Origin: Patescibacteria group bacterium
GTDB taxonomy: Bacteria > Patescibacteriota > UBA1384 > 2-12-FULL-50-11
NCBI GenBank assembly: GCA_022843855.1
Contig: JALHMV010000001.1
Span: forward strand, 2,780 to 66,779
Reading direction: 5' to 3'
DNA: 64,000 nucleotides
A model generated the notes under the pieces. The model had not been told where the DNA came from and made no database searches. It worked only from the letters and a program-made list of their open reading frames with translations. This document shows, in pieces, positions 3,758-45,398 of this stretch (position 1 is the stretch's first letter; every line of letters begins with the position of its first letter). A program made the position numbers and the translations under genes.

Positions 3758-4706
3758 GGCCGAGCCCCTCGGCAACCTCAGCCAAGGCGGCTCCAAGTTT
3801 GATCGAATCGTGGTAGAGCGGCTTGGACTCGTTGACTAGGTCGTAGAGATAGACTTTCATTCCGCTGATCGCCGGTTGATCGGTCGTGATATTGCGAACC
3901 GAGCCTAGTTTCCCCTCATTTTTGGCAACGGTGAGAATTCTTTCGTTGACTAGAACCCCATCAAAACGTGTACCGTTGACGTATTGCCTGAGCGTTTCGA
4001 TGTGATCTTCGACGGAAAAACCCTCGGTCTCACCGCGTTCTGTTGAGGCGTTACAGATATATATCTTACGCGCTGACGACTCCTCAAATGCCGAACGAAT
4101 ATCGGGGATGAGGAAGCTGGGTACGACGCTGGTGTAAAAACTACCGGGTCCAACCAGGACGAGATCCGCCTCGCGAATGGCCGCGACCGCTGCCGGGTGG
4201 CCGGTGGCGTCGGGTGGTAAGAGGTTAACGCGCCGGATTTTGTAGCGATGCCCAAGGACCGAGATGTCCACCTGACCGAGCGCTGTCTGGCCGTTGCCCA
4301 GCTCAGCGGTCAGGTGGACGTTATCGAGCGTGGCGGGTATAACGCGCCCCTTGACGGCCAAAATCTTACTGCTGGCTTCGACTGCTGATTCAAAGTCCCC
4401 GGTAATATCCGAAAGAGCGAGGAGGAGCAGATTGCCGAGACTGTGACCGCTCAAGCCCCGCCCCTGCTTAAACCGGTACTGGAATAACCGTGTTGCCAGC
4501 TCTTCGTCTTTAGCGAGAGCGGTCAAACAGTTACGGATATCGCCGGGCGGGAGGATGCCGGTTTCACGGCGCAAACGGCCGGTTGACGCGCCGTTATCCG
4601 TCATCGTAACCACCGCAGTCAGCTCAGCGCGGTATTTCTTTAGGCCACGCAGAAGCATCGCGAGGCCGCTCCCTCCCCCGATGGCGACTATCTTTGGTGG
4701 CGTCAT
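3729..4706 (-). CDS. YvcK/CofD-like gluconeogenesis factor (UPF0052)
   Basis: IVAIGGGSGLAMLLRGLK...VVTMTDNGASTGRLRRE...PPGDIRNCL matches the YvcK family signature. Confidence 0.8.
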   Translation of the reverse strand: MTPPKIVAIGGGSGLAMLLRGLKKYRAELTAVVTMTDNGASTGRLRRETGILPPGDIRNCLTALAKDEELATRLFQYRFKQGRGLSGHSLGNLLLLALSDITGDFESAVEASSKILAVKGRVIPATLDNVHLTAELGNGQTALGQVDISVLGHRYKIRRVNLLPPDATGHPAAVAAIREADLVLVGPGSFYTSVVPSFLIPDIRSAFEESSARKIYICNASTERGETEGFSVEDHIETLRQYVNGTRFDGVLVNERILTVAKNEGKLGSVRNITTDQPAISGMKVYLYDLVNESKPLYHDSIKLGAALAEVAEGLGLSLNRSSSR

Positions 4707-6237: not shown

Positions 6238-6254
6238 GTGAGCCGAGTGGGGAT
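6238..6254. repeat. 17 bp direct repeat of the tRNA-Lys 3' end (gtgagccgagtggggat); second copy at 6376-6392
   Basis: The two copies are exactly identical, 139 bp apart, on the 3' side of the minus-strand tRNA-Lys. Confidence 0.8.
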
Positions 6255-6376
6255 TTACGTCGCTAAAGCGACTCCACTTCTCGCAAATTCCATTTGCTCG
6301 CAGTCGAACCCGCTCATTTCATTCGCTGTTCGCTCCCAGGACACGAAAAAGCACAGGCAGAACCTGTACTTTCTCG

Positions 6377-6448
6377 TGAGCCGAGTGGGGATCGAACCCA
6401 CGACACAGAGCTTAAAAGGCTCCTGCTCTACCACTGAGCTACCGGCCC
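6377..6448 (-). tRNA. tRNA-Lys (anticodon UUU)
   Basis: Reverse complement GGGCCGGTAGCTCAGTGGTAGAGCAGGAGCCTTTTAAGCTCTGTGTCGTGGGTTCGATCCCCACTCGGCTCA folds as a cloverleaf. D-stem GCTC/GAGC, anticodon loop CTTTTAA and T-loop GTGGGTTCGATCCCCAC are present. Confidence 0.8.
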
Positions 6449-6471
6449 ATGACTACTCAGAACTACTGGCT

Positions 6472-6501
6472 ATTTTACCCGAAAATCCGATCAGTACTCA
6501 A
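6472..6501 (-). promoter_or_regulatory. candidate sigma70-type promoter for tRNA-Lys
   Basis: On the minus strand: TTGAGT, an 18 nt spacer, then TAAAAT about 22 nt upstream of the tRNA 5' end. Confidence 0.3.
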
Positions 6502-7361: not shown

Positions 7362-7967
7362 TTAGCCGAGCTTTTTCAGCCGTTCGTACAGCTCACGTTG
7401 CTCGCGAGAAAGACGCTTCGGGATCTCGATATGTAGGACGACGGTTAGGTCGCCACGCCCACGGCGCGTCTGTTGACCTTTGCCGCGGAAGCGAAAGGCG
7501 AGACCTTCCTGAGCGCCGGCTGGGATCTTCAGTTCGATCTCGTCACCAAAGTTAGTTTTAAACCTGACGGTATCACCAAGTACGGCTTGGGGGATGGAGA
7601 TAGAAAGTTGCACCTGGATTTGAGCAAAGGCCGATTCGAATAAGTCTTCAAAGATGGAGCCGAATCCACCGCCGCCAGATCCACCGAAGTTGACGTTAAA
7701 GCCACCAAAATCAAAACCACCGGCGCCAGCCCCTGGTTGAGCACCGCCAAAGCCGCCGCGCGCACCGGCGTGACCAAACTGGTCGTACTGGGCCCGCTTT
7801 TGCGGGTCGCTTAAAACTTGGTACGCCTCGTTGACTTCCTGAAACTTGGCCTTGTCACCGCCTTTGTCGGGATGCAGTTGATGAGCCTTCTCGCGGAAAG
7901 CTTTCTTAATGTCTCCTTCGCTGGCACCCTTGGAGACTCCCAGAATATCGTAGTAATCGCGTGGCAT
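7362..7967 (-). CDS. J-domain co-chaperone, short DnaJ/CbpA-like, lacking the zinc-finger domain
   Basis: J domain DYYDILGV...HPDK, a Gly/Phe-rich linker and a DnaJ C-terminal segment ([26 protein letters not shown]). There is no CxxCxGxG repeat. Only 201 aa. Confidence 0.75.
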
Positions 7968-8025
7968 ATCGAAAGATATTTTACCCGAAAAATGTCAAGT
8001 TTGCTTTACGTGCTACAATGTTTTT

Positions 8026-8256
8026 ATGAACGAAGTACGAGAAGTAAATATAAATGTTCCAAAGAAAGCGATTGTTATTAATAAGTATGCCGAAAACGGC
8101 GGCGGCTGGATTTGGTGCTTAGGTTTTATCGGCGCAATTATTTATTACTGGCAGACCGCCAGCGGTTTTGGCGAATACTTTTTTGGATTTCTAAAAGCAC
8201 TCGTCTGGCCAGCCTATATGGTATACGACCTGTTTAAGTTTCTGGGCGTTAACTAA
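8026..8256 (+). CDS. small hypothetical membrane protein (76 aa)
   Basis: Two hydrophobic helices. AT-rich. The -10-like TACAAT sits just upstream of the ATG. Confidence 0.35.
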   Translation: MNEVREVNINVPKKAIVINKYAENGGGWIWCLGFIGAIIYYWQTASGFGEYFFGFLKALVWPAYMVYDLFKFLGVN

Positions 8257-8903
8257 TCTTCTTTATCTTTGAAGACGCCGCTGCAAATATCTGGGTAATC
8301 TTTTTTGAATTGGCTATCGGCGGGGACACTATCCCAAATCGCCTCAATTCGTCGCCTGGATTCGGCGTCAAAGTAGCCCATTGGGCATAATCTATCGATC
8401 AACAGCGACGCCGAGGCGAGCTCCCAGTGGATTTGTCCCGAACCATCCTCTTTGGTTGGGCGCCCTTCAATAATCTTGTCGCGACCGGTATAGCCAAGTA
8501 GTTGGCCTTTTCTAACTTTCGCAAATCGCTTAATTTCTGGCTCGATTGTGTTGAGTTCTTTGTACTCGATTTTATAAAAGCCCGAGTATGTAGTGACATC
8601 AATCGACCCCGCCTCAGTTTTACCTGCCATAAAGACCCAACCGTCGGCCGAAGCGATTATGGGCGTCACACCCATAAACCCAAAATCGATACCAGGGTGA
8701 CCGTCCGGGTTACCGTTGGCTTCGTTATGTTCTATTTTTTCGCCCATAGGAATTAGGCTAACCCGCGAGTCGTATTCGGGGGCAAACGGTAGTGAAATTT
8801 CGATATGTTTGTGCGGTAAATACGCCCACGGCTGGAATAGGAAAAGTGCCAGTAAGAGGATGATTGTTCCAACTACAATTCCGAGCCACTTTAATACTTT
8901 CAT
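8253..8903 (-). CDS. membrane-anchored LytM/M23-like domain protein (probably catalytically degenerate)
   Basis: N-terminal TM (MKVLKWLGIVVGTIILLLALFLF). M23 first motif GHPGIDF is present. The second motif is GYTG...IHWE, where HW replaces the canonical HxH. AT-rich. Confidence 0.55.
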   Translation of the reverse strand: MKVLKWLGIVVGTIILLLALFLFQPWAYLPHKHIEISLPFAPEYDSRVSLIPMGEKIEHNEANGNPDGHPGIDFGFMGVTPIIASADGWVFMAGKTEAGSIDVTTYSGFYKIEYKELNTIEPEIKRFAKVRKGQLLGYTGRDKIIEGRPTKEDGSGQIHWELASASLLIDRLCPMGYFDAESRRRIEAIWDSVPADSQFKKDYPDICSGVFKDKED

Positions 8904-8963
8904 TCTTGAATCAGCATGACAGTAAAACAAATAAACGCGAAGGGGTACCTTCGCGTTGAGCGG

Positions 8964-9176
8964 TTAGCGGTGAGTGGCGTCGTAGGCTTGTCGCTTCTCC
9001 TCTGACGCCGGGCAGGGCTTTACCAAATTGCCGTAGAAGTATTTTCTTCCGAAAAACAACAACGGGTTATCGGTAGCGCCACAGAGAACGCAAACTTCGT
9101 CGTAGAGCGATGAGTCGGAGTAGCGAGTTCGGTGCGTCGGGTGGCACTGGTCTTGGTATTCGTTAGTGATGTCCAA
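8964..9176 (-). CDS. small Cys/His-rich hypothetical protein (70 aa)
   Basis: CHPTH...CVLCG...CP residues could ligate a metal. Weak support, ORF only. Confidence 0.25.
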   Translation of the reverse strand: MDITNEYQDQCHPTHRTRYSDSSLYDEVCVLCGATDNPLLFFGRKYFYGNLVKPCPASEEKRQAYDATHR

Positions 9177-9278
9177 ACTGGGTAATTGTTGCAGAGTTCC
9201 CAGGTAGCGTCTAGTCGATTATGGATAAAGAAAAGCCGCCGAGAAAGGTGATACTTCTCGGCGGCGCTGAACGGGCTG

Positions 9279-10142
9279 TCATTCGAGCGAGGGCGGCCCA
9301 CCGAGTTGAATCATCGACGGGGTTGGCAAGTGGGTCAAGGCTCCCGGTATCCTCGAGGCCGGGAGCTGGCGATAGGCACCGCCACTGCCCTCACCGCTGA
9401 GACCGAACCTGTAGCCAACCTCACCGATAAACGCTTCCGCCAAGAGGTCGCGAGCTCGACATTCGAACAGCGTTGCGAGCTCAGGGCGGTAGCTGGGGGC
9501 TACCGGATTGCCGTATGTCTGGCAGAACAGCCAGGTGGCGCGACCGGCCACCGTAGCACGGTGCGAGGAGTAGGCGAGGTTGTCGCTGCCTAGTATTCTC
9601 GTGGTCAACGGCGCCTCAGTGATGTCGCTGACGGCGACGATAGCGTTCCGAACCAGTTCGGTCGCTTCCTTGCCTTCTCGGTCTCGGGATTCCTCCATCT
9701 CATCGTCGCCATAGCCGACTCGATTGGTTCTCTCGGCAAGCCAGTCGGAGGTGATGTCGGCAAGGCCGCTCGGCAGGCCCTCTCTGGCTTCGTAATAAGC
9801 CATCAACGTCCTGACCGTTGCGCAGACATCGAAGAGCTGGTGGCAACCGAGACGAAACGAGAGAACGTACGGTTGCTCCTCGTCCCCCGCAGTTACCAGG
9901 CACTGAACCCGGAACGGAATTCGATCCCCTTCGTCAGCCTGTCGAATCATCTCCACCATCGAGCGGTGCGCTGGCCTCGGCTGATCGCTCGCCGATCCCT
10001 GTACAAGGAGGAGCGGTCGAAGCTCTTCGGCGCTCAGAACGGGTACCCCCGAAGCGCCTGGGCTGTTGAGGCGGTCTGCTCGATGGCCGAGGCCGGTGAC
10101 AAGTGCGGTGACGGACGGTGGCCATTCTTTTGTGTGTGGCAT
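9279..10142 (-). CDS. hypothetical protein (287 aa) in a GC-rich patch
   Basis: Longest ORF in a roughly 60% GC block. Balanced acidic/basic composition, whereas the alternative frames give Arg/Pro/Gly-rich junk. No family recognised. Confidence 0.4.
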   Translation of the reverse strand: MPHTKEWPPSVTALVTGLGHRADRLNSPGASGVPVLSAEELRPLLLVQGSASDQPRPAHRSMVEMIRQADEGDRIPFRVQCLVTAGDEEQPYVLSFRLGCHQLFDVCATVRTLMAYYEAREGLPSGLADITSDWLAERTNRVGYGDDEMEESRDREGKEATELVRNAIVAVSDITEAPLTTRILGSDNLAYSSHRATVAGRATWLFCQTYGNPVAPSYRPELATLFECRARDLLAEAFIGEVGYRFGLSGEGSGGAYRQLPASRIPGALTHLPTPSMIQLGGPPSLE

Positions 10143-10328
10143 ACGTGCTCCTTGGATGCTGGGTGCGAAGACGCGTCACATTGTGTCACTCCTGACCTGC
10201 GGAGTCAATGATGTAGCTATGGGTTTAACGGGTAGAAGAGGACGGCTCTACGCCATGGATATTCATTTACTGTTTTACAACAGGCTCAGATTACGTTTTA
10301 CGAACTAAATATATTAAGAGAACCGCCC

Positions 10329-10811
10329 CTAGTCTATTTTGGGATCAATCAGTCCAGTTATATCCTTGCGCAAATCTACCGCTCCTTTAATAAATGAGAT
10401 CATCTCATCAAACTGCTCATGGATCATCAGATAAAAACTTGAGTTAATATTCACTCTGGTGAGGTACCTAAAACCCCCCCTGTCATGCCCGAACTGATTA
10501 ATCGACTTGACCCAATGCCTTTGGTCAAAGTCAAAACCTTCGGTTCGGAAGTTTTGTGTATTTATCTGAGGGCAATTTTTCTCACACACATCAAACAAGG
10601 AGATCAGGTCATGTCCAGGCTTTTGCATATCCAGGTTCAATAAGAAAGCTTTCAGATACAGCTCAATAGACCAATGGAGCAAGAAAGCTGGCACGCGGAG
10701 CTCGCTAAATTTATTTCCCGATATCTTTTGGAACATAAGGGATCGCGAATCGTTGAAAGCAGTATCAGCAAGTGCCAACCAACTATCTAGTCTGACCCGA
10801 TCTACGCCCAT
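10329..10811 (-). CDS. hypothetical protein with HEPN-like Rx6H motif (160 aa)
   Basis: AT-rich (about 38% GC). Motif ELRVPAFLLHWSIELYLKAF (R-x6-H) in a predicted helical protein. Directly downstream of dnaK. Confidence 0.4.
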   Translation of the reverse strand: MGVDRVRLDSWLALADTAFNDSRSLMFQKISGNKFSELRVPAFLLHWSIELYLKAFLLNLDMQKPGHDLISLFDVCEKNCPQINTQNFRTEGFDFDQRHWVKSINQFGHDRGGFRYLTRVNINSSFYLMIHEQFDEMISFIKGAVDLRKDITGLIDPKID

Positions 10812-10855
10812 CTTATAGAGAAAGAGGCCGTTAGGCCTCTTTCATGTTTGTTCCT

Positions 10856-12757
<1,902 letters not shown>

Positions 12758-12794
12758 AGCTTACAGCCTCCTATAAAGTTTTGTTCTAAGAAAA

Positions 12795-12822
12795 ATTGTA
12801 AAGTTTCCTTTACATTTGTCAA
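12795..12822 (-). promoter_or_regulatory. candidate sigma70 promoter for dnaK
   Basis: On the minus strand: TTGACA, a 16 nt spacer, then TACAAT. RBS TAGGAGG upstream of the dnaK ATG. No CIRCE inverted repeat was seen. Confidence 0.4.
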
Positions 12823-12830
12823 TGGCTAGC

Positions 12831-13364
12831 TTAGCCCTTGGAGACGCGAACTTTGGCGGGCTTGAGAACGGTGTCGTTCAAGAGCCAGCCGCCTTCAACT
12901 TCGTCGATGATTGTTTCAGCCGGTAAGTCGCTTGGCTCATAGGAGATCGCTTCGTGCAAATTGGCGTCAAAATGCTCGCCCTTAGTTTTAATGCGTGTCA
13001 GGCCGGCCTGGGCTAACGTTTCTTCAAGCTGCTTTTCAATCTGTTTGAGGCCGACGAAGTATCTGTGAATTCTGCCAAGCTCGTCTTCGTCCAAGACGCC
13101 ATCGGCTGAGATCGTTGGAGCGTGCGTCGCGGCACGGTAGAAGTTGTCCATAATCGGAAACAGTTTGGCGAGCCACTGAGCGCCGGCGCGTTGGCTGATC
13201 TCGGCTTTTTCTTGCTCGATCCGACGCTCGAGATTGGCGTAGTCACTGGCCAAACGAGTGCGAGATTCTTCACTAATTTCGAGCGCGTGACGGAGTTGGG
13301 CCAACTCTTTCTCAAGTTGATCTTTGGTCGGTTGACGATGCTGGGGCTTCTTTTTGGCAGACAT
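12831..13364 (-). CDS. grpE: nucleotide exchange factor GrpE
   Basis: 177 aa with a coiled-coil N-terminus and the GrpE C-terminal block (FDPNLHEAI-like FDANLHEAISYEP). Confidence 0.85.
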   Translation of the reverse strand: MSAKKKPQHRQPTKDQLEKELAQLRHALEISEESRTRLASDYANLERRIEQEKAEISQRAGAQWLAKLFPIMDNFYRAATHAPTISADGVLDEDELGRIHRYFVGLKQIEKQLEETLAQAGLTRIKTKGEHFDANLHEAISYEPSDLPAETIIDEVEGGWLLNDTVLKPAKVRVSKG

Positions 13365-13423: not shown

Positions 13424-14626
13424 ATGCGGTACGCGCCGAGTGACTCGCAGAAGTTTGTCTTGTTTTGGGTCTCGATCGTCGTCGGTACAGTGATCGGTTC
13501 GCACATCAGCGTGCCAACCACGATATTGCTGTGGGTTGGGGCGCTCTGGCTCGTTTTATTACTCAGCGGACAAGATGAACGGATCGAAACGGTCAGCGTG
13601 GGTGCGCTTGGCATCAGTGGCGGACTAGTGTTGTGGCAAGTAACGGGCGGGGAAACATGGTTTCCGTTAGAAGCGCTCTCCGGGTTGGTTGGCTGGTTGG
13701 AACGACTGCGAACGGCGATTATTGATCAGATATTTTTGGCGCTACCCGAGCCGCATGGCTCGCTCTTGACCGGAATCTTAATCGGCAATCGGGCAAAGCT
13801 TGACCCTGAGTTGCTCGATACGTTTCGAACCGTTGGACTCACTCATTTAATCGCCGTTTCGGGCTACAACTTAAGCGTTTTGACAAGTAACGTGCGGTCG
13901 CTGCTCTGGCCGCTGATCGGCCGACGTGCTCTTTTTGTAGCAGCGGCGGTCATCGTCGCCTTCGTCGTTCTCTCGGGCGCTCCGCCGTCAATCCTCCGCG
14001 CAGCAGTTATGGCAGGTAGCTTATTGCTCGCACAATTCGTTGGTCGACCGAGCCGGTCGGTTAATATTCTTATCTTTGCCGCAGGGATACTAACTGTTTT
14101 TGAACCGAAGATAGTTTTCGAGATCGGCTTTCAGTTATCAGTTGTCGCTACCTACGGCCTCGTTCGGCTTGGGCCGATCGTCGTCGATTGGCTATCCCGC
14201 TTTCAACGGCTGCCCGAAAGCTTACGATTAATCATTGGGGAGACGCTCGCGGCCACCATCGCAACCGCTCCGTTACTCGTCTTATACTTTGATCGGCTCT
14301 CGCTCATCTCTCCTATCAGTAACATTCTCGTGCTGCCGATCATGCCGCTCCTAATGGGGCTGGGGATCGTTGGCTGCCTGTTCTTGTGGATTATTCCTAG
14401 CGTCGGAGAGTACCTCATTCATATCTGCTGGCCCCTGTTGGAATGGATCGTCTTTAGTTCGACTAAGCTCGCCGCACTTCCTCACGCAACGCTCACAACC
14501 GCCATTGCCGATTGGGTGGTGATCGGCGCCGCAGCGAGCATGATCGTAGCGATTGAAGTCGGATTCTTTTATTGGCGCCGCCTCTCGCGAGATTCGGACA
14601 AATTTTTACAAATGGTTCGGGCATGA
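13424..14626 (+). CDS. comEC: ComEC/Rec2 competence membrane channel domain
   Basis: Polytopic membrane protein with the ComEC signature GLTHLIAVSGYNLSVL. Confidence 0.8.
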   Translation: MRYAPSDSQKFVLFWVSIVVGTVIGSHISVPTTILLWVGALWLVLLLSGQDERIETVSVGALGISGGLVLWQVTGGETWFPLEALSGLVGWLERLRTAIIDQIFLALPEPHGSLLTGILIGNRAKLDPELLDTFRTVGLTHLIAVSGYNLSVLTSNVRSLLWPLIGRRALFVAAAVIVAFVVLSGAPPSILRAAVMAGSLLLAQFVGRPSRSVNILIFAAGILTVFEPKIVFEIGFQLSVVATYGLVRLGPIVVDWLSRFQRLPESLRLIIGETLAATIATAPLLVLYFDRLSLISPISNILVLPIMPLLMGLGIVGCLFLWIIPSVGEYLIHICWPLLEWIVFSSTKLAALPHATLTTAIADWVVIGAAASMIVAIEVGFFYWRRLSRDSDKFLQMVRA

Positions 14627-15480
14627 AAAACCTACTGCAACTTGCGGCAATTATTGCCCTCCTTTCGCTGGTCGTATTTGGCAAGGGGGAGTTTGATGCC
14701 AATAGCGATCACAATGATCTGCGGGTGTGGTTTTTTGACGTCGGTCAAGGCGACGCGATCCTACTGGACACCCCGAGCGACCAACAAGTCCTCATCGACG
14801 GCGGTCCCAACGGATCGATATTATCCGAACTCTCCCGAGCACTCCCGTTTGGTGATAAAGACCTTGATCTAGTTATTGTGAGCCATAATCACGCCGATCA
14901 CATCGGCGGTCTTGTCGAAGTACTACGCCATTACACCGTCCGGGAGATTTGGATCTCGGGAGCGCTTCACACAACGGACGGCTACCAAAAACTCTTGGAA
15001 CTCATCAGGCAAAAAAATATTACCGCCACCGTCGTAGCGGCCGGAGCTGGCATCAACCTTGGCGAGCTCAACGGCATCGCCCTTTTTCCGTTAGATGAAA
15101 AAACCGGTCAGCTCCCGGACAATCAGCACGACGCCAACATCGTCACCTACTGGACGTACGGAACGCAGTCGATTTTGCTGACCGGTGATGCCGAAGCCGA
15201 ACACGAAGCGGCAATGTTGGCACGCGATATCGTCAAACCCGCAACAATTCTCAAAGTCGGTCACCACGGTTCGCGCACCAGCACAAGCGCGCCATTCCTA
15301 AACGCTGTCAAGCCGCAGTTTGCGGTTATCCAGGTAGGTCAGAACAACCGTTACGGACATCCGACAACCGAAGTAATCGAACGGTTGAGTGCGATCGGCG
15401 CCCAGATCCTGCGAACCGACCAGGAGGGGACGATTCTTTTTGGTATGACGTCCACGTTTACCGCCCAGCTAAGCCCTTAA
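14623..15480 (+). CDS. MBL-fold metallo-hydrolase (ComEC C-terminal beta-lactamase-like domain as a separate ORF)
   Basis: DVGQGDAILL...VIVSHNHADHIGG...VGHHGS. ATG overlaps the comEC stop (ATGA). The frame is open from 14572, in -1 frame relative to comEC. Confidence 0.75.
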   Translation: MKNLLQLAAIIALLSLVVFGKGEFDANSDHNDLRVWFFDVGQGDAILLDTPSDQQVLIDGGPNGSILSELSRALPFGDKDLDLVIVSHNHADHIGGLVEVLRHYTVREIWISGALHTTDGYQKLLELIRQKNITATVVAAGAGINLGELNGIALFPLDEKTGQLPDNQHDANIVTYWTYGTQSILLTGDAEAEHEAAMLARDIVKPATILKVGHHGSRTSTSAPFLNAVKPQFAVIQVGQNNRYGHPTTEVIERLSAIGAQILRTDQEGTILFGMTSTFTAQLSP

Positions 15481-16739: not shown

Positions 16740-17860
16740 GGGGGGTTAGGCTCTCCCCAAATTCCCGTGCCGTTAAGGGCGTCAACAAGAACCGCCTTTA
16801 TTCGTTCGATCGCAAAATCTGCTCGTTCGTGTACCGCCGGATCCTCGCTCGACTTCTTTAGCTGCGTCCAGTAGTTCAGCTCACCAATGCCCCTGTTGCA
16901 GAGCATATTTGCTCGAAAGCAAATCGGGAAGTCTTCGTTATTGCGAGCTGCGGCCGAGCGATACAATTGCTCCTGAAGCTCAGGACTATGAAAGAGGTCA
17001 ATGAATAAAAAGGCGTAATCAGACGAAGGGTCGTTAACCCGATTGAGCCGTTCCCAGTCAAAAAAACCGATCTTGCCGTTTTCTTGCTTAATAATATTTG
17101 TCGGGTTAATGTCACCGGCGACTAACTTGGTTGGTGTTCGATCAAAGACTTCCTTCGACTGCTCCAGGAAATCTGCTGCCTGTTGATAAGCCTTCTGGCC
17201 AAGGTGTTCGGCAAGCGCTGACGACCAACTATTGAACTTCTTCTTAAAGTGATCGTAAGCAGAGCGTGTTTCCACATCAAGATCAGTCACCGATCTCTCA
17301 TTGAGATTGGCGTATTTTCCAAAAGTATCGATAAACTCAACGATCGTCTCCATATCTTCCGGTGTAATTAAATCCGGTGATGCTTCGTGAATAGTACCGA
17401 GCAACTTCCCTTTGAACATATTCTCAACAAGATATGTAGGTCGATCAGGCTCGGTACACGACTGGCTGATCGTAGGGAAATCCGCTTTTTCTTGGAGATC
17501 AGGCGGAAACTGTTGGTAAACATCAGGGGCGATATCTCTCAGGAAAACTATCTCGTTAAGTCCATTGACATAACTTCCATCACCTGGTTCCGGACCAAGC
17601 TTGTAGATCGAGGAATGCTCGTTAGAGCTTTCGCCGATATCAACTACCTCCGCAACCGTAAATGGACGTTCGGCTTCGGAAAAGATTCGACCGTTATAAA
17701 AGTCTCGATCGATCTCGTACGCTCTTCCGCCCTGGATAATTTGGTACGGAAAAACTCCCAGCTCCTTAAGATCGGCCTGGACCAGCTCGAGCCGGGAGAT
17801 TGGCTCTCCTTCGGGCTTTTCGTCCATCGCATCCGGCTGGTAGCCCAACGATTCAGGCAT
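16724..17860 (-). CDS. APH/choline-kinase-fold phosphotransferase (putative sugar or small-molecule kinase)
   Basis: Kinase-fold catalytic block LVAGDINPTNIIKQ...FFDWERL (HGD/DxxxxN ... D[FW]E pattern). Last gene of a GT4 operon. Confidence 0.6.
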   Translation of the reverse strand: MPESLGYQPDAMDEKPEGEPISRLELVQADLKELGVFPYQIIQGGRAYEIDRDFYNGRIFSEAERPFTVAEVVDIGESSNEHSSIYKLGPEPGDGSYVNGLNEIVFLRDIAPDVYQQFPPDLQEKADFPTISQSCTEPDRPTYLVENMFKGKLLGTIHEASPDLITPEDMETIVEFIDTFGKYANLNERSVTDLDVETRSAYDHFKKKFNSWSSALAEHLGQKAYQQAADFLEQSKEVFDRTPTKLVAGDINPTNIIKQENGKIGFFDWERLNRVNDPSSDYAFLFIDLFHSPELQEQLYRSAAARNNEDFPICFRANMLCNRGIGELNYWTQLKKSSEDPAVHERADFAIERIKAVLVDALNGTGIWGEPNPPQVSG

Positions 17861-22468: not shown

Positions 22469-23489
22469 TTTTACGTGTTATCTGACTCTGCCGCAGATAC
22501 TTGGCTGCTTCTTCGGGACTCATTACATCAACAACAACTCCAGAGCCAAGCTCATAGCCGCCGTAGGTACCCAAGCGCGGAGCTATCTCGATATGCCAGC
22601 GGAAGAACTCACTATTCTTGACTGAATCTGGTAAGTCGTGAAGGAAAAAATTTAGCGCTGGCTGTTTTAGTACACGCGCGTAGCGACTCATAACGTCTTT
22701 CATTATTTGCCCTAGAGAGTGGATAAACGTTTCCGAAGTATCTTCAAAATGGGCTGACGGCTCTTTCGGCAACACCCAAACCTCAAAGGGAAATCGAGCG
22801 GCGTAAAAGGTAAAGGCAATAAACTCGTCGTTTTCGGCGATAATTCGATCCTTCTCTTTCTTCTCGTGAAAAATCAAATCTTCAAATACATTCTTGCCGT
22901 TATTAATAAAGTACTGCTCAGCGCCGTTCATCTCCCGAACTATTTGATTCGGGATAATATTAGCTGCAAAAATTTGAGCGTGCGGATGGGCGATCGAGGC
23001 TCCTGCTTTCGGACCGTGATTATAAATGAGCATTGTGTGCTCGGCGTTACAATCTTTACGCCAGTATTTGAAACGACGTTTTGAAACCGAGAAAAGCTCG
23101 TACCATTGTTGGGTCGAGAAAGAATAAATTGTATCTTCAGCCTGTTTAACGATCAGAACATCGTGACCGCCAGTCGATGGTCGGGCAGCGTAGAAGTTGC
23201 TCTCCAGTCGATAAGTTCTCGGAGAACACGAGGCAGGATCCTCAAGAAACACCGGATACTTATTTGGAATAACGTAGATATGCTTCGTCTCGTAATCTTT
23301 GAGACGCTGTCTTTGATACTGGTCACCATCCAGCGAGAACGGATCGTTTTCCCCGGATTCTGGTTTGATTGTTTCAGCGCTCACAAAATCCGAAGGGCGT
23401 TTCGAGCGTTCCGGCGCGATCACTACCCACTCGCCGGTAATAATATTCTGCCGCAACTGAGGCATGGGCTTATTGTGCCATAGAGTCAA
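22461..23489 (-). CDS. GalT-like HIT-family nucleotidyltransferase (hexose-1-phosphate uridylyltransferase-like)
   Basis: ITGEWVVIAPERSKRP, NKYPVF and HxHxQ motif IAHPHAQIF; 342 aa. Confidence 0.7.
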   Translation of the reverse strand: MTLWHNKPMPQLRQNIITGEWVVIAPERSKRPSDFVSAETIKPESGENDPFSLDGDQYQRQRLKDYETKHIYVIPNKYPVFLEDPASCSPRTYRLESNFYAARPSTGGHDVLIVKQAEDTIYSFSTQQWYELFSVSKRRFKYWRKDCNAEHTMLIYNHGPKAGASIAHPHAQIFAANIIPNQIVREMNGAEQYFINNGKNVFEDLIFHEKKEKDRIIAENDEFIAFTFYAARFPFEVWVLPKEPSAHFEDTSETFIHSLGQIMKDVMSRYARVLKQPALNFFLHDLPDSVKNSEFFRWHIEIAPRLGTYGGYELGSGVVVDVMSPEEAAKYLRQSQITRKTS

Positions 23490-23534: not shown

Positions 23535-25742
23535 ATGAAATATCAGTACGGCGAGTTTTCAGCTCAGGGCGATCAGTTTTTTGTTCAGCGCGTTGACACG
23601 CCGCAGCCTTGGCACAATCAGCTCAGCAGCAACGATGTCTATAGTCGCATTTCTCAGGTAGGCCAAGGCGAGTTACGTTTTCTCAACCAGCACGCAACCC
23701 CCATTACAAGACGACTCATCTTTGTTCGCGATAACGATAGCAGCGAGTCCTGGAACGCTACCGGCAACGACCAGACTGCGTTCGATCACTTTCAAGCCGT
23801 TCACGCACAATGGCACACCAGAATCGAGACGGTCCATCAGGCTATCAGCTCTTCAACGACGTTCTTTTTACCCGAGGACGAACCGCTCGAAGTCTGGCGG
23901 GTGAAGGTCAGTAATCAATCAAGGACGAAAAGACGACTAACGCTTTTTGCGGGAGTGTTGTGGGGGAACAAAGCAAGTGAGACGTTTGAAACACGGCACA
24001 GCCACGGCATTCTTTTTGGCGACGATCGTTCGATTGAAGATGGGGCGACGCTCTTCGTAACCGCTACACGAACAATTGACAGCTTCGAAACACAGGCATC
24101 CGCGTTCATCGGACGACGCGGCACGCTCGAAGCACCCGAAGCCGTCGCCGAAGGCAAGCTCTCGCGAAGCGCCGGCGCCGGCGACCAGGCGTTAGGCGTC
24201 ACACAAATAAATCTCACCCTCGGCGCCGGTGACGAGACTGAGATTATCCTGCTTGTCGGCGCAGTAACCGGAAAAGGCTCAACCGCTGCAAAGCGGCGAG
24301 CCGACGCTGACCGACGAATAAAAGCGATTCGACAACGTTATCAAGAAGCAGGCAGAGTTGGTGAAGCGATGATTCGTTGCGAACAGTCCTACTCAACGTT
24401 AACCCAACGCATCTTAGTAAAAAGTAGCGACTCAGTTTTTGACGCATTCTTCAACTATTGGAAGAAGCATCAAGCGATTGCGGCGCTACGAGCTAGCCAA
24501 TCAGAACTTGAGAAGCTTACGATAGCTGCCAGCCTGACCGCTCTCGACCCGGAACAAACCCGACGCACCTTAGTTGATGCCCTCCAAAGACAACATCGAG
24601 ACGGATCGGTCGTTTTTGATGATAATCCCGATGGTCACTTATCGTTATTAACGACTGCGGTAGCGTATTTAACCGAAACCGCTAACCTAGCATTTCTTGG
24701 CGAGAAACGCGGATACGCCGATGCGAGCGAAGCCTCCGTTCTCCACCACCTTACTCGAGCCGTCGATCGATCGCTTAAAAGCCTGTCGTCACGCGGCCTT
24801 CCCGCTCAACAGACTATTGCCGTGATAAGCAACCCCGTAGTTCGTGAGCGATTCGAGACGGCCTGCCTTCTTTACTCGGCATTGCGCGGGCTACTACCGA
24901 TTCTCGACGCTGTCGGCGAGCACGAGCTCGTTCACCGCTACGACCGGGCAGCCGAGAAACTTCGTACTTCAATCAACGCCCACTTCTGGCAAAACTCGTG
25001 GTATGCGTCCGAGCTAGAGAACGGTCGGGCAACCCTCGGTCGCAGAGGCGCCGAGGCGTATCGGATCGGCCTCCGGGAACAGGCAATCGCCGTATTGAGC
25101 GGGGTTAGCACTCGTGATCACGGCCACAAAGCGCTTAGCGAAGCGGAGCGGTCGCTAGCAACTAAGGTTGGAGCGCTCAACTTCGCCCCTGCATTCGCGA
25201 CACCAACAAGTACGCCGGCGTCGATGGCAGCCCCTGGCTGCGGAACTAACAGCACAGTCGTCAATCGTGACGTCGCGCTCGCCGTGGCAGCATTGGCAAA
25301 GCTTGGGGAGGGGGACGAGGCCTTTCGCGTCTGGCAACGCAGCTGCCCGGCATCTCTCGGTGCGCACCCCGACCAATACCGAGCAGAGCCGTTCGCCTTT
25401 TCAGCTGGATTGGCCGGTCCAAGTCAGTCTGCTTTTGGCTGGGGGAGCGGTGCTTCGACCGACCCCGCACCGGCGCTCTTTTGGCAAGCCATGCTTGAAA
25501 ATGTCATCGGCTTACAGCCGACGCTTGGCGGCCTCAAAATTGATCCCTGCCTCCCACGTGATTGGCGAAAAGTCGAAGTAACACGCACGTTTCGCGGTGC
25601 CGAATATCACATTAGAATCGTTAACTCACTGCGATCCAACCGAGGCGTTGACCGAATACTTGTTGACGGAGTACGTATCACTGGCAGCGTTGTCCCACCG
25701 CAAGGAACCGGCGTTCACTTCGTAGAAGCTGTACTCGGCTAA
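23535..25742 (+). CDS. GH94-like glycoside phosphorylase (cellobiose/chitobiose phosphorylase family)
   Basis: The N-terminal block DTPQPWHNQLSSNDVYSRISQVGQGELRF...IFVRDNDSSESWNA...LTLFAGVLW aligns with the cellobiose phosphorylase N-terminal beta-sandwich pattern; 735 aa. Confidence 0.55.
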   Translation: MKYQYGEFSAQGDQFFVQRVDTPQPWHNQLSSNDVYSRISQVGQGELRFLNQHATPITRRLIFVRDNDSSESWNATGNDQTAFDHFQAVHAQWHTRIETVHQAISSSTTFFLPEDEPLEVWRVKVSNQSRTKRRLTLFAGVLWGNKASETFETRHSHGILFGDDRSIEDGATLFVTATRTIDSFETQASAFIGRRGTLEAPEAVAEGKLSRSAGAGDQALGVTQINLTLGAGDETEIILLVGAVTGKGSTAAKRRADADRRIKAIRQRYQEAGRVGEAMIRCEQSYSTLTQRILVKSSDSVFDAFFNYWKKHQAIAALRASQSELEKLTIAASLTALDPEQTRRTLVDALQRQHRDGSVVFDDNPDGHLSLLTTAVAYLTETANLAFLGEKRGYADASEASVLHHLTRAVDRSLKSLSSRGLPAQQTIAVISNPVVRERFETACLLYSALRGLLPILDAVGEHELVHRYDRAAEKLRTSINAHFWQNSWYASELENGRATLGRRGAEAYRIGLREQAIAVLSGVSTRDHGHKALSEAERSLATKVGALNFAPAFATPTSTPASMAAPGCGTNSTVVNRDVALAVAALAKLGEGDEAFRVWQRSCPASLGAHPDQYRAEPFAFSAGLAGPSQSAFGWGSGASTDPAPALFWQAMLENVIGLQPTLGGLKIDPCLPRDWRKVEVTRTFRGAEYHIRIVNSLRSNRGVDRILVDGVRITGSVVPPQGTGVHFVEAVLG

Positions 25743-41704: not shown

Positions 41705-43734
41705 TGTTAAGAAAATTGCTAACTTTTTTAATGGTCAAGCGGTCGCTCGTTCGACCGAGCGACCGCGGAATCTTTGATCCCTTTTTGCCTATCACGTCTC
41801 TGAAGCGAATTGAAAACGAGTTTCAGGCAGACTACGAACTGGCTGATCAGAAGAACGACTATCGCAATACCGGTACTGGAACGGTTGACAGTCTCAGTTA
41901 CGAAGAGCGTATCGAGTCGCCGCCGGCCTTCCTAGGCTTTCGGCTCGTAAGCGTTGTCATTGCCCTCATTCTTGGTTGGCGTCTAGTCGGCTTACAGATA
42001 ACAAAAGGGGCAGAGAACTTCTCCCGAGCAGAGGGTAATCGGCTCGAGACACAGCCGACACTCGCTCCTCGAGGGCTCTTGTATGACCGCAAAGGTGTGC
42101 CGCTCGTTCAAAACCGACCGAGTTTCTCTGTGGTGTTTCGTCCAGCTGAATACCCTCGAACCGAAGCTGATCGAGCTACTTTTATTAACCGTCTTGCGAC
42201 GGTACTCGATCGGTCGTCGGACGAAGTGCGGCAGAGGATCGAGTCCTCGCTCCGACGTGATCAGGTGACGCTTGAAGAGGGCATCGATCGCAATCGAGCG
42301 CTCTCTCTTGAACTTCGCCTAACCGAACTAACCGGCGTGACTCTCGAAAAAGCCCCGAGTCGTTATTACGGTGATGTGCCGGGACTCGGTCACCTGGTCG
42401 GCTATATCAGCAAGGTCACGGCCGAAGATCTGAAGAAGCGTCCCGACCTTCTCCCGACCGCCTTTCTTGGAAAGAGCGGGGTTGAAGCGAGCTATGATGA
42501 ATATCTTCAGGGAATTGCCGGGGCTGAGACGCTTGAGATCGATGCGCTCGGTCGAGCAATCAGGCCGATCGGTTCCAAGCCGCCCACCGCCGGTAAGTCG
42601 CTCGTTCTTGGTCTTGATAGCGATCTTCAACGCGTTACCGCCCAAGCGCTTGGGGAGGCGATCCAAAAGAATAACGCCACCAGCGGTGCGGCTGTGGTTC
42701 TCGATGTTAGAACTGGTGATGTCCTCAGTATGGTTAGCTTCCCGATGTTTGATAACAATCTCTTCTCGCCGGCAGTGAGTTCGTCTGATCGTCAACGTAT
42801 CCTGACCGATCCCGGCGCCCCACTGATTAACCGCGCCATTGCCGGCCAGTACCCGTCCGGGTCTACTATCAAGCCATTTGTTGCTGCTGCAGCGTTAGCC
42901 GAAAAGACCATCTCTGATTCGACTGTCCTTGATACGTCAGAAGGAAAAATCGTCGTAGGTCAGACAACGTTTTCTGACTGGAAGACCCATGGTCGAACCG
43001 CCGTCCGCCAGGCGATCGCAGAGAGTAATAACATATTCTTTTTTGCGCTCGGTGGCGGCTACAAACAAATTCCCGGACTCGGTATCGATCGACTTAAGAG
43101 TTACCTGGAGCGCTTCGGTTTCGGCAGCGCGACCGGTATCGATCTGGGTTCGGGATCCGAAACAAAAGGCCTTGTTCCGAACCCAGATTGGAAAAAAAGA
43201 ATCAAAAAAGAGAGTTGGTTTCTTGGCGATACCTATAACACCTCAATTGGACAAGGAAATCTGCTCGTTACCCCGCTTCAACTTACCCGAGCAACCGCGG
43301 CTATTGCTAACGGGGGCACGCTGTACCGGCCGCGGGTGGTCAAAACGATTCTTGGAACAGGGGGCGATGCTGGCCAGGATCTAGTACCGGTCATTGACCG
43401 ATCGTCGGTTGTCGATGGTTCTGTACTGACCGTTGTTCGTGAAGGCATGCGTCAAACTGTTGTTAGCGGCTCTGCCCGCCCCTTCAATGTATTGCCAGTT
43501 GAGGTGGCGGCCAAGACGGGTACTGCCCAAACATCAAAGTCCAAGGATAAAACTCATTCGTGGTTCACGGCCTTCGCTCCGTACGCTGTACCAGAGATTG
43601 CCATTTCCGTTATTGTTGAGGGTGGCGGTGAGGGTTCGGCAGTCGCTGCACCGGTTGCGCGTAATATTATCGAGCGCTATTTTAATCTCCCTCTCACACC
43701 CATTGTTCCAGCTCCCCCCAGCACACCAGAGTAA
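41701..43734 (+). CDS. mrdA: penicillin-binding protein 2 (peptidoglycan D,D-transpeptidase)
   Basis: SxxK motif GSTIKPF, SxN motif and KTGTAQ; TM near the N-terminus. Confidence 0.85.
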   Translation: MMLRKLLTFLMVKRSLVRPSDRGIFDPFLPITSLKRIENEFQADYELADQKNDYRNTGTGTVDSLSYEERIESPPAFLGFRLVSVVIALILGWRLVGLQITKGAENFSRAEGNRLETQPTLAPRGLLYDRKGVPLVQNRPSFSVVFRPAEYPRTEADRATFINRLATVLDRSSDEVRQRIESSLRRDQVTLEEGIDRNRALSLELRLTELTGVTLEKAPSRYYGDVPGLGHLVGYISKVTAEDLKKRPDLLPTAFLGKSGVEASYDEYLQGIAGAETLEIDALGRAIRPIGSKPPTAGKSLVLGLDSDLQRVTAQALGEAIQKNNATSGAAVVLDVRTGDVLSMVSFPMFDNNLFSPAVSSSDRQRILTDPGAPLINRAIAGQYPSGSTIKPFVAAAALAEKTISDSTVLDTSEGKIVVGQTTFSDWKTHGRTAVRQAIAESNNIFFFALGGGYKQIPGLGIDRLKSYLERFGFGSATGIDLGSGSETKGLVPNPDWKKRIKKESWFLGDTYNTSIGQGNLLVTPLQLTRATAAIANGGTLYRPRVVKTILGTGGDAGQDLVPVIDRSSVVDGSVLTVVREGMRQTVVSGSARPFNVLPVEVAAKTGTAQTSKSKDKTHSWFTAFAPYAVPEIAISVIVEGGGEGSAVAAPVARNIIERYFNLPLTPIVPAPPSTPE

Positions 43735-43735
43735 G

Positions 43736-43820
43736 TTGTACGAAGTTACATAAATATATACTATTTCTAATGATGTAATAGGTTTATCGTATTATTGTAA
43801 TGGTTACTTTTGTACGAAGT
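43736..43820. promoter_or_regulatory. AT-rich region with 11 bp direct repeat TTGTACGAAGT (copies at 43736 and 43810) upstream of the cdaR-like gene
   Basis: Two copies 74 bp apart bracket TGTAAT-containing -10-like elements. Candidate operator/promoter. Confidence 0.35.
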
Positions 43821-43839
43821 CATAGTTATAGGGAGGAAT

Positions 43840-44997: not shown

Positions 44998-45398
44998 CTT
45001 GCGAGCTGCCGGTGAATAATCTCGACCATCTCGTCAGGAGTGTGGTAGGACTTGACGAGGTAATCGACGGCCCCCAGAGATATGGCGAGCTGCTTATCTT
45101 TGTCCGACTGCTCACTGCCGAGATTGGTCAGAACGATGACCGGGATGTCGCGAGTGTCGACGTTTGCCTTCAGACGACGGAGAACCTCAAACCCATTCAT
45201 GCCGGGCAGGAGAATATCCAGCAAGATGAGGTCGATTGGGTTGCGCGAACAGGCGAGCAGAGCCTCTTCTCCGGTCTCCGCGGTTCTAACATTGAAGTCC
45301 TCCTCCGCAAAACGCTCTTCGTAGAGATCGATGAGGAGCGGCTCATCTTCCACTAATAACACTGTCTTACGTTCGTCCCTCGTCCTCTGCTTAGTCAT
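44994..45398 (-). CDS. stand-alone response regulator receiver domain (CheY-like)
   Basis: VLLVEDEPLL...LILLDILLPGMNG...PVIVLT..., 134 aa, no output domain. Confidence 0.8.
   Translation of the reverse strand: MTKQRTRDERKTVLLVEDEPLLIDLYEERFAEEDFNVRTAETGEEALLACSRNPIDLILLDILLPGMNGFEVLRRLKANVDTRDIPVIVLTNLGSEQSDKDKQLAISLGAVDYLVKSYHTPDEMVEIIHRQLAS

Follow-up and report, generated by a model that had tools for sequence, protein, structure and literature searches.

A mosaic accessory-gene slot 3' of dnaK in a patescibacterial genome: a probable recombination hotspot

The interval immediately 3' of dnaK in this patescibacterial genome is probably (at roughly 70%) an accessory-gene recombination hotspot, filled here by three independently acquired modules, A, B and C. 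The hotspot would be that of a Saccharimonadia-like clade, with dnaJ bounding its other side where that gene is still nearby, and each module would have come from a donor of different base composition. The DNA probably entered by natural transformation and may have been patched in via homologous recombination anchored in the chaperone genes or in shared segments of the slot; no integrase, transposase or flanking att repeats would take part. Competence and recombination have been discussed as gene-transfer routes in Patescibacteria (PMC12455944), and in this genome a ComEC-like competence gene pair adjoins grpE (13424-15480).

The window, the whole 64-kb stretch of DNA that was analysed, contains the interval between the start of a dnaJ-like gene (7967) and the stop of dnaK (10856). 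This interval measures 2,888 bp, in agreement with the ∼2.9-kb gap of the earlier note, and contains the five ORFs described there. The assumption that dnaK and dnaJ are normally contiguous is only roughly true for this lineage: more distant relatives have one conserved gene of 215-247 aa between the two. The features of the locus are as follows.

7362-7967, minus strand: dnaJ-like gene for a short co-chaperone of 201 aa, core-gene flank (Pfam DnaJ 85.9 bits, DnaJ_C 46.9 bits)
7976-9193: module C (small76, M23-like gene and CysHis70), from nucleotide identity to L003/L004
7977-7991: exact 15-nt repeat TATTTTACCCGAAAA, a promoter-like -10 region at the left edge of module C; second copy at 6471-6485, upstream of tRNA-Lys
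8026-8256, plus strand: small76, 76 aa, aromatic/hydrophobic (ORF, homologues)
8253-8903, minus strand: M23-like gene, membrane-anchored product of 216 aa from the ATG at 8903, the probable true start, with the ORF open to a TTG at 8930 (Pfam Peptidase_M23)
8934-8957, minus strand: terminator-like hairpin and T-run 3' of CysHis70 (sequence feature)
8964-9176, minus strand: CysHis70, 70 aa (Cys/His motif, homologues)
9235-9265, minus strand: strong intrinsic-terminator-like site 3' of u287, 12-pair stem and T-run
9279-10142, minus strand: u287, 287 aa, 62% GC (codon-position GC, homologues)
9572-10223: segment of module B with 97% identity to L097, a short unrelated contig
10180-10208, minus strand: promoter-like site TTGACT-17-CACAAT, TG-extended, inside the transferred u287 unit
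10329-10811, minus strand: HEPN160 (module A), stand-alone HEPN-domain protein of 160 aa, 42% GC
10820-10843: perfect 10-bp hairpin between the dnaK stop and the HEPN160 start, with a T-poor tail on the coding (minus) strand
10856-12757, minus strand: dnaK, core-gene flank (Pfam HSP70 849 bits)

Mean GC across the 64 kb is 52.7%, and 500-bp windows have a standard deviation of 3.4% (1st percentile 43.5%, 99th percentile 60.9%); GC heterogeneity similar in size to that of the gap is also seen elsewhere in the stretch, at a few points. Sliding GC and tetranucleotide checks bore out the sharp composition swings reported across the gap. Measured values are 41.1% for small76 and 46.9% for the M23-like gene (both earlier put at 35-42%), 53.1% for CysHis70 and 62.0% for u287 (both ∼60%), and 42.4% for HEPN160 (∼38%), so that the direction of the swings stands while individual figures were somewhat off. 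CysHis70, previously assigned to a ∼60% GC block with u287, is at 53% and travels with the M23 block. When tetranucleotide deviation was computed in 800-bp windows across the whole 64 kb, every window with z>2.4 fell inside 7501-10900, with three peaks (z of 3.6 at 7901-8700, 3.4 at 9301-10100 and 2.7 at 10101-10900). Positions 7968-10855 are the most compositionally deviant part of the 64 kb.

Synteny was assessed in eight patescibacterial loci, all from metagenome-derived assemblies of differing quality. Blastn alignments with the two closest relatives, L001 and L002, end at 10858 and 10865, within 10 bp of the dnaK stop, and those with L003-L006 end ∼90-190 bp inside the variable 3' end of dnaK. 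Beyond this point the cargo differs between relatives, in five different sets.

L001: EEP nuclease, GmrSD/HEC-05, RadC, type I MTase, SoFic
L005: EcoRI-type MTase, type II REase, second MTase, DndB/DpdB-like protein
L002: TPR-like protein, HEPN_AbiU2, Mrr_cat, Bro-N
L003/L004/L006: other unknowns, HTH protein, DUF6159, metallophosphoesterase

Recognised defence genes thus occupy the slot of L001, L005 and L002: PADLOC identified the GmrSD-like HEC-05, the type I methyltransferase, SoFic and the type II REase/MTase pair, and Pfam identified HEPN_AbiU2 and Mrr_cat. In relatives, the locus collects defence genes. Because homology ends near the dnaK stop and the cargo varies, the data support a foreign accessory or defence hotspot for the locus, as the earlier note had proposed; the relatives' cargo and the foreign mosaic uphold that part of the proposal. 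None of the five proteins in the slot of this genome, however, matched a PADLOC model at E<=1, and a defence role for its own cargo, mainly HEPN160, is therefore something we infer.

The gene order MBL-ComEC-grpE-dnaK ... dnaJ-TM176-tRNA-Lys is the same in L003, and module C lies at the same relative position in L003 and L004, which are two independent assemblies. None of the 80 related loci contains u287 or HEPN160. Neither integrase or transposase domains nor phage structural genes were found among the five proteins, and no repeats bracket 7968-10855. A repeat of the tRNA-Lys 3' end (6238/6376) is located beyond the island, over a span of only 121 bp.

The clearest case for transfer comes from module C. 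Its nucleotide identity is 92-95% to L003 and 94% to L004, while that of the flanking dnaK and dnaJ is 71-77% (the short dnaJ is 71% identical to that of L003, and 79.5% at the amino acid level), which argues for recent lateral exchange. The protein identities follow suit: 94-99% for module C, as against 83% for DnaK, 55% for GrpE and 44% for ComEC. Third-codon-position identity is 90.5% for the M23-like gene and 87.3% for CysHis70, compared with 47.8% for dnaK, and such a difference (90% against 48%) within a single pair of genomes makes vertical descent of the module impossible. Its genes also have the GC values of the same genes in L003, where the locus is 46% GC. By the test set in the earlier note, close relatives that share the genes and their location, with genome-typical composition, would speak against an island; L003 literally presents this for module C, but with an identity so extreme that it points to transfer. 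These comparisons indicate that module C was recently exchanged with a BroJett034-like lineage, the dnaK genes of the two lineages being ∼75% identical.

Module C would encode a membrane-anchored M23-like envelope protein, a small hydrophobic protein and a phage-type zinc-binding mini-protein. The second of these, small76 (98.7% identical in L003), has homologues of 49% identity elsewhere in L002 and L006, where the L006 copy adjoins a topoisomerase-IB-like gene; it had no match in Pfam, PHROG or PADLOC and, earlier described as a membrane protein, scores too low in hydropathy to pass a simple cut-off for a membrane helix. The N-terminal anchor reported for the M23-like protein was confirmed (Kyte-Doolittle hydropathy 2.48 in a 19-residue window), and its Pfam Peptidase_M23 score is 32.7 bits against a cut-off of 28.7. 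Alignment of the family (A4) reveals an invariant zinc-ligand motif, H69-x3-D73, together with invariant E116 and Q157-x-H159. In LytM, the His of 'YxHL' and the first His of H-x-H are the catalytic histidines. Both are replaced throughout the M23-like family, the first by Glu (E116, where 'YKEL' aligns to 'YAHL' of TagE) and the second by Gln (Q-x-H for H-x-H), so the protein lacks the catalytic histidines of peptidase M23. It resembles LytM/lysostaphin M23 proteins and dLytM in its Pfam M23 match, its H-x3-D, its final His and its N-terminal membrane anchor, which many cell-wall M23 enzymes also have, and differs from LytM/lysostaphin M23 at these two histidines and from classical M23 in a conserved C-terminal two-Cys extension (RLCPxGY...YPDICxG). 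Homologues of 48-61% identity come from metagenome contigs; the surroundings of two of them were read, and both sit among ordinary genes of a chromosome, e.g. MetRS and P-type ATPase. Of the suggestion that this gene is toxin-like, the M23 domain survives, but a conserved patescibacterial family in housekeeping contexts is no obvious toxin. Since the M23-like and small76 families are found elsewhere among ordinary chromosomal genes, part of the island would be ordinary envelope biology carried on a recombination tract.

CysHis70 is 90-94% identical in L003/L004. Its motif, C-H-P-T-H-x-T-R-Y-S-D-S-S-L-Y-D-E-V-C-x2-C-G...C-P, is shared with small ORFs of the IMG/VR viral contigs L087-L090 and with Mesorhizobium, Rhizobium and Rhodobacter phage proteins, and CysHis70 is a probable zinc-binding protein with a phage-associated domain.

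The 287-aa ORF of module B is a real gene: GC at its three codon positions is 0.66/0.51/0.68, the normal GC1>GC2<GC3 coding pattern, shuffling the region yields an open run of this length in 0.1% of cases, and homologues exist. An exhaustive HMMER search over 1.84 billion representatives returned only P0005 (109 aa, 92% identical across the first 87 residues), P0006 (39%), P0007 (42%) and P0009 (27%), together with one spurious match to a repeat protein; a profile search added P0010 (37%). The family is very rare and uncharacterized, with about five known members, and u287 matched nothing in Pfam, PDB, PADLOC or PHROG. The homologues are solitary genes with different neighbours in four other contexts. 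In L097, which carries a copy of 97.2% identity, homology begins 81 bp upstream of the u287 start codon, and the flank upstream of that (bases 1-159) has no match to the window. The u287 unit, with its own promoter-like site and strong terminator, is a self-contained cassette of promoter, gene and terminator, and the L097 copy speaks for its mobility.

Module A consists of HEPN160, which scores 22.9 bits against Pfam HEPN (PF05168; cut-off 22), a marginal match limited to residues 42-85; its homologue P0003 also has a precomputed PF05168 match. HEPN160 has the four-helix up-down bundle of the HEPN fold, with an extra region (residues 85-118) modelled at low confidence. The HEPN domain proposed in the earlier note therefore holds on the Pfam match, but the R-x6-H cited there (R39...H46) is not the catalytic motif, because it lies in helix 2 and R39 is not conserved (Ser in P0004). 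Invariant in the family are R115, before the last helix, and H67, between helices 2 and 3; the canonical Rx4-6H is missing, with no His 4-6 residues past R115 in any of the three members. AF0298-like HEPN-T proteins and AbiV keep the basic residue of the motif, lack its His and have an alternative His, and both stand-alone versions and clustering with restriction-modification genes have been reported for this family (PMC3710099). The R115 and H67 of HEPN160 form exactly the variant pattern of AF0298-type HEPN-T (PF05168; PDB 2hsb) and AbiV, although identity to solved HEPN-T proteins is only 10-16% and no match to AbiV or another Abi was found in Pfam, nor any to PADLOC at E<=1. HEPN160 may work alone as an abortive-infection or toxin effector, either as a HEPN-type RNase or by binding RNA; having neither Rx4-6H nor a neutralizing partner gene, it could alternatively bind RNA or regulate without being toxic. 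Its transcription probably comes from dnaK read-through, since the 44 bp between the two genes contain only a weak hairpin and no promoter. Its only homologues lie on contigs of 28-37% GC beside other neighbours.

The position of HEPN160 and u287, adjacent on the same strand directly after dnaK, raises the question of whether these two rare orphans form a toxin-antitoxin or defence system like HEPN-MNT, with u287 as a novel neutralizing or sensing partner, the more so as HEPN toxins normally require a partner (PMC3710099, PMC7641770). We consider this quite unlikely. The genes differ by 20 GC points, 186 bp separate them, and u287 has its own promoter-like site and terminator; the 97% identical L097 copy has an unlike upstream flank, no u287 homologue has a HEPN neighbour in the four other contexts, and no u287 accompanies the HEPN160 homologues, a trend that already points to no linkage. 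Nor does HEPN160 resemble the type VII HEPN-MNT (HepT-MntA) toxin, since it has neither RxxxxH nor the Tyr two residues after the motif His. The MNT-HEPN antitoxin gene lies upstream of the toxin gene (PMC3710099), whereas HEPN160 follows dnaK and u287, without a nucleotidyltransferase signature or match, lies downstream; no MNT nucleotidyltransferase adjoins HEPN160 or occurs in the contexts of its homologues. A phage origin, in which module C or the whole patch is a decayed prophage lysis remnant with the M23-like protein as endolysin, small76 as holin and CysHis70 as a phage accessory, has somewhat more in its favour but is still improbable. The M23-like protein does match PHROG endolysin families, weakly or locally (phrog_6700, E=5e-8; phrog_3084, E=0.006), the other occurrences of the CysHis domain are in phage genomes and viral contigs, and the short, hydrophobic small76 adjoins the M23-like gene convergently. 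Nevertheless, further phage genes, an integrase and att sites were not found, none of 2.9 million viral contigs has a relative of the M23-like protein, whose catalytic histidines are replaced family-wide, and both its own homologues and those of small76 have the chromosomal settings described above.

The remaining two alternatives deny that transfer built the mosaic. Vertical inheritance of these genes, with amino-acid or codon bias or relaxed selection accounting for the odd composition, would fit the shared place of module C in L003 and L004 and the comparable GC heterogeneity elsewhere in the 64 kb. It is extremely unlikely, being largely refuted by the third-position identities; the absence of u287 and HEPN160 from the 80 related loci and the presence of their only relatives on contigs that share no neighbours and mostly differ in GC also speak against it. 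Highly unlikely, too, is an assembly artefact in which the contig was stitched from pieces of several Patescibacteria that occur together. The sequence does come from a metagenome-type contig of 109 kb, composition changes abruptly at intergenic joins, and near-identical fragments occur in other samples (L097, L003, L004); but the flanking gene order is that of L003, two independent assemblies place module C alike, and the joins lie in intergenic DNA with terminators and promoters intact and no truncated gene.

An accessory-gene hotspot that receives modules by recombination thus remains our preferred reading. Like core-gene-flanked defence islands, the slot is a fixed site between core genes with content that varies among related genomes, foreign composition and, in relatives, enrichment in restriction-modification and abortive-infection genes; it differs from them in having no integrase, tRNA attachment site or mobile-element backbone, and in a cargo of three single-gene or three-gene cassettes, none of them recognized by PADLOC. 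Genomic islands have been reported in Patescibacteria, with transfer mostly among Patescibacteria (PMC12455944), as seen here. In a limited literature check we found no description of the dnaK/dnaJ flank pair, and dnaK is absent from the text of that paper. A bolder proposal makes the slot a dedicated Saccharimonadia immune locus whose cargo in this genome has undescribed phage-conflict functions. We regard it as unlikely; were it true, HEPN160 would be a single-gene AbiV-like RNase whose expression is tied to the heat-shock operon by dnaK read-through and which would fire when a phage causes proteotoxic stress. The u287 family would then supply a new protein that acts alone in defence or counter-defence, and the phage-type CysHis zinc domain would have been captured from a phage as a regulator or decoy.

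Core-flanked hotspots are already well known, and the slot is an instructive example with rare, uncharacterized genes rather than a surprise. Patescibacteria, with their tiny genomes, mostly do without CRISPR and are believed to depend on a small number of non-specific defences. Knowing the sites at which these genes are stored and exchanged helps in the search for new systems and in tracing gene flow among episymbionts, and the first genes after dnaK, with five cargo sets in five related genomes, offer a concrete and easily searchable anchor. Three unannotated small families, the AF0298/AbiV-like solo HEPN, the u287 family and the phage-borne H/C3 zinc mini-domain, are candidates for experiment.

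The interval between dnaK and the dnaJ-like gene, put at about 2.9 kb in an earlier note, measures 2,888 bp; the window as a whole has a GC content of 52.7%, and its nearest relatives by DnaK identity (82–87%) are metagenome-assembled Patescibacteria and Saccharimonadales genomes. Rfam and tRNA scans gave no match inside the island. The genes are arranged as follows.

12831–13364, minus strand: grpE
10856–12757, minus strand: dnaK
10329–10811, minus strand: 160-aa ORF (HEPN160)
9279–10142, minus strand: 287-aa ORF (u287)
8964–9176, minus strand: 70-aa Cys/His ORF (CysHis70)
8253–8903/8930, minus strand: M23-like ORF
8026–8256, plus strand: 76-aa ORF (small76)
7362–7967: 201-aa DnaJ-like gene, followed by a 176-aa membrane protein and then tRNA-Lys

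Composition is unusual across the island by both GC and tetranucleotide scans, as the earlier note had claimed, although the percentages quoted there were a few points off. GC content is 53–55% in dnaK, dnaJ and grpE, and 41.1% in small76, 46.9% in the M23-like gene, 53.1% in the Cys/His gene, 62.0% in u287 and 42.4% in HEPN160. In 500-bp windows the 1st and 99th GC percentiles are 43.5% and 60.9%, and the island reaches both tails no more than 1.5 kb apart. When tetranucleotide usage was scanned in 800-bp windows, all windows of the 64 kb with z > 2.4 fell in 7501–10900, in three separate peaks. Weaker outliers, of low GC at about 17000–17500, 22600–23300, 43600–44200 and 45300–45900 and of high GC at about 4100–4600 and 24800–25600, might be further imported genes.

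The island divides into three modules, each of which has its own history.

10224/10329–10855: module A, HEPN160
about 9194–10223: module B, u287
7976–9193: module C, small76, the M23-like gene and CysHis70

Module C is 92–95% identical in nucleotide sequence to the corresponding DNA of L003 (Patescibacteria bacterium BroJett034) and 94% identical to that of L004, another close relative, whereas the dnaK and dnaJ genes of these two loci are only 71–77% identical to those of the window. At third codon positions identity is 90.5% for the M23-like gene and 87.3% for CysHis70, as compared with 47.8% for dnaK; even between L003 and L004, dnaK third positions are only 75.6% identical. Module C proteins are 94–99% identical, as against 83% for DnaK, 55% for GrpE and 44% for ComEC. 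Judged from these sequences, an excess of identity so far above that of the flanking genes would be impossible under vertical descent and points to recent lateral exchange. The GC content of each module C gene matches that of the same gene in L003, whose locus has a GC content of 46%, which suggests a lower-GC relative as the source of the DNA. L003 also carries an extra 1.2 kb between CysHis70 and the M23-like gene, encoding a DUF6159 membrane protein and an HTH regulator, and a metallophosphoesterase gene before dnaJ, so that even the shared module is undergoing remodelling.

The M23-like protein has a membrane anchor and a Pfam M23 match; when all five island proteins were searched against PADLOC, NCBIfam and PHROGs, M23 was again the only useful result. 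Its family is conserved, with members 48–61% identical on metagenome contigs of 38–44% GC, and in the two cases where the gene neighbourhood was read, the neighbours are ordinary chromosomal genes. The family invariantly retains H-x3-D and the last His, has Glu in place of the ‘YxHL’ His and Gln in place of the first His of H-x-H, and bears an additional Cys-containing C-terminal extension; the protein resembles an envelope protein more than a toxin. Homologues of small76, 49% identical, occur at other places in the related loci L002 and L006.

The earlier note had assigned the Cys/His gene to the GC-rich block; its history instead links CysHis70 to the M23 block. The protein contains a ∼45-residue H/C3 domain with the pattern C-H-P-[ST]-H-x-T-R-x-S-D-x-S-x-[YF]-D-x2-C-x2-C-G...C-P; beyond L003 and L004, the searches recovered it only from viral contigs and from phages of Mesorhizobium, Rhizobium and Rhodobacter. 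This zinc-type domain is strikingly conserved across unrelated Alphaproteobacteria phages and uncultured viruses, as a mini-protein or embedded in proteins of 151 and 358 aa, all annotated as hypothetical (L087, 3–131; L088, 3749–3952; L089, 5950–6138; L103, 893–1036; L104, 2501–2629). Scans of viral contigs with the M23-like protein, HEPN160 and u287 found no relatives.

The u287 ORF has normal coding periodicity, and an equally long open run arose in 0.1% of shuffles. It has a promoter-like site of its own (10208–10180, TTGACT-17-CACAAT) and a strong terminator (9265–9235). L097, a short contig from another sample, is 97.2% identical to the window starting exactly 81 bp before the u287 start codon; farther upstream the two do not match. 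Taken together, these features mark the u287 unit as a self-contained cassette, for which two different upstream flanks are known. Its relatives are few: four real ones in an exhaustive HMMER search of 1.84 billion representatives and one from a profile search, a further match, to a 1409-aa repeat protein (P0008), being discarded as spurious. The homologues are solitary genes in differing patescibacteria-like contexts (one flanked by an M48 peptidase gene and LemA, one following SecA and a TPR gene, one near Ddl); their GC content is near that of the contig in two of three cases, and the gene for the homologue P0007 has 50% GC in a 45% GC locus.

u287 matched no family, PDB, PADLOC or PHROG entry, exact-sequence look-ups of u287 and HEPN160 returned no record, and PDB sequence searches with both profiles gave only chance-level matches (InhA/M6, E 0.7; SENP7). 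A weak Pfam match of u287 to Peptidase_M6 (E = 0.06) was rejected because it occurs in no other family member and HExxH is absent; a role as an MNT-like partner was also considered and rejected. The single-sequence AlphaFold model of u287 (pLDDT 33) was unusable.

Among 5.8 billion protein clusters, HEPN160 has only two homologues, P0003 (55% identical) and P0004 (38%), both with other neighbours on contigs of 28–37% GC, consistent with the AT-rich gene in the window. The HEPN-like assignment made earlier is correct (Pfam PF05168, barely over threshold), but the R39-x6-H46 on which attention had fallen lies in helix 2, its Arg is unconserved and it is not catalytic. A three-sequence AlphaFold model of the protein is usable (pLDDT 76.8, pTM 0.78). 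Residues invariant in the family are H46, E50 and K54 (helix 2), G66-H67-D68 (between helices 2 and 3) and G112-G113-x-R115-Y116 (immediately before the last helix). No His lies 4–6 residues past R115, so that the canonical Rx4–6H motif is missing. Anantharaman et al. (PMC3710099) describe exactly this variant in AF0298-like HEPN-T and AbiV proteins, which retain the basic residue but not the motif His and in which the segment between helices 2 and 3 supplies another, strongly conserved His; they also report stand-alone members and clustering with restriction-modification operons. Unlike HEPN-MNT systems, HEPN160 has no adjacent MNT gene. From fold, residues and context, our best guess is that HEPN160 acts alone as a HEPN-type effector of the Abi or toxin class, either an RNase or an RNA-binding protein. 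The 44 bp that separate HEPN160 from dnaK contain a perfect 10-bp hairpin, whose tail is poor in T, and nothing resembling a promoter, from which we infer that HEPN160 would be transcribed by read-through from dnaK.

In blastn comparisons with the window, the L001 and L002 alignments end no more than 10 bp from the dnaK stop codon, and those of L003–L006 end about 90–190 bp inside the variable dnaK 3′ end. The cargo that follows is different in every relative.

L001: EEP nuclease; GmrSD-like (PADLOC HEC-05, E = 3e-50); RadC; type I methyltransferase (E = 7e-182); SoFic (E = 1e-106)
L005: 240-aa RNKAIH protein; EcoRI-type methyltransferase and type II restriction enzyme (E = 5e-144); second methyltransferase; DndB/DpdB-like protein
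L002: TPR-like protein overlapping HEPN_AbiU2 (35.2 bits, cut-off 26.8); Mrr-type endonuclease; Bro-N protein
L003, L004 and L006: other unknowns

Alignments that end at dnaK, followed by differing and defence-rich cargo, indicate that the locus is an accessory slot of variable content, with many defence genes, anchored on conserved chaperone genes. The more distant relatives L007 and L008 (DnaK 67–70%) have a compact dnaK-X-dnaJ arrangement, in which X is one conserved, membrane or lipoprotein-like gene of 215–247 aa (L007, 9989–10732; L008, 3498–4145); the window lacks this gene, which may have been the original one in the slot. HEPN-like genes stand first after dnaK in two close relatives as well: the TPR-like/HEPN_AbiU2 pair of L002 (2599–3859) and the 240-aa protein of L005 (9977–10699), with its weak RiboL-PSP-HEPN match (E = 0.012). 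HEPN160 has no direct sequence similarity to either; the repeated presence of HEPN genes at this site is convergence of function class, not orthology.

The flanks have features of their own. DnaJ in this clade is only ∼200 aa long: besides its J domain and a Gly/Phe-rich region it has just the final portion of the C-terminal domain, and it lacks the zinc-finger region (window, 7362–7967; L003, 14034–14636; L006, 6561–7163; L007, 10757–11359), and its score of 171 bits falls well short of the 377 bits set as the NCBIfam DnaJ equivalog cut-off. A topoisomerase-IB-like gene adjoins dnaJ in L003 (14637–15692) and the small76 homologue in L006 (9067–10149), but the window has no such gene between dnaJ and the gene for the 176-aa membrane protein, so that the locus is rearranged on its dnaJ side as well. 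Beyond it, outside the island, 17 nt of the tRNA-Lys(ttt) 3′ end recur exactly, as a direct repeat, 121 bp farther downstream (6238–6254 and 6376–6392), which resembles an att-type scar of an integrated element since lost. Between grpE and dnaK, 35 bp (12791–12825) are 100% identical in L004 and 94% in L005, where adjoining coding DNA is 67–77% identical; they include a near-consensus TTGACA-16-TACAAT and presumably represent a conserved promoter or regulatory site of dnaK. Two overlapping ORFs encode the ComEC-like competence channel, a membrane part (13424–14626) and a metallo-beta-lactamase part (14572–15480), a split also seen in L001, L003 and L005.

Neither an integrase or transposase nor att-type, inverted or other bracketing repeats were found at the island. 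The most economical route into the slot would be uptake of DNA by the cell, with the imported DNA joined by homologous recombination. ComEC-like genes adjoin grpE, and competence and recombination have been discussed as transfer routes in Patescibacteria (PMC12455944).

The suspected foreign, mosaic patch between dnaK and dnaJ is borne out. The defence or accessory hotspot proposed with it is right in part: the site is a genuine hotspot of the defence type, but the island contains no recognised defence gene, and one of its modules is for the most part envelope biology, brought in by recombination. Variable islands flanked by core genes are a well-known kind of feature; this instance, with its dnaK and dnaJ flanks and three orphan families, appears to be undescribed.
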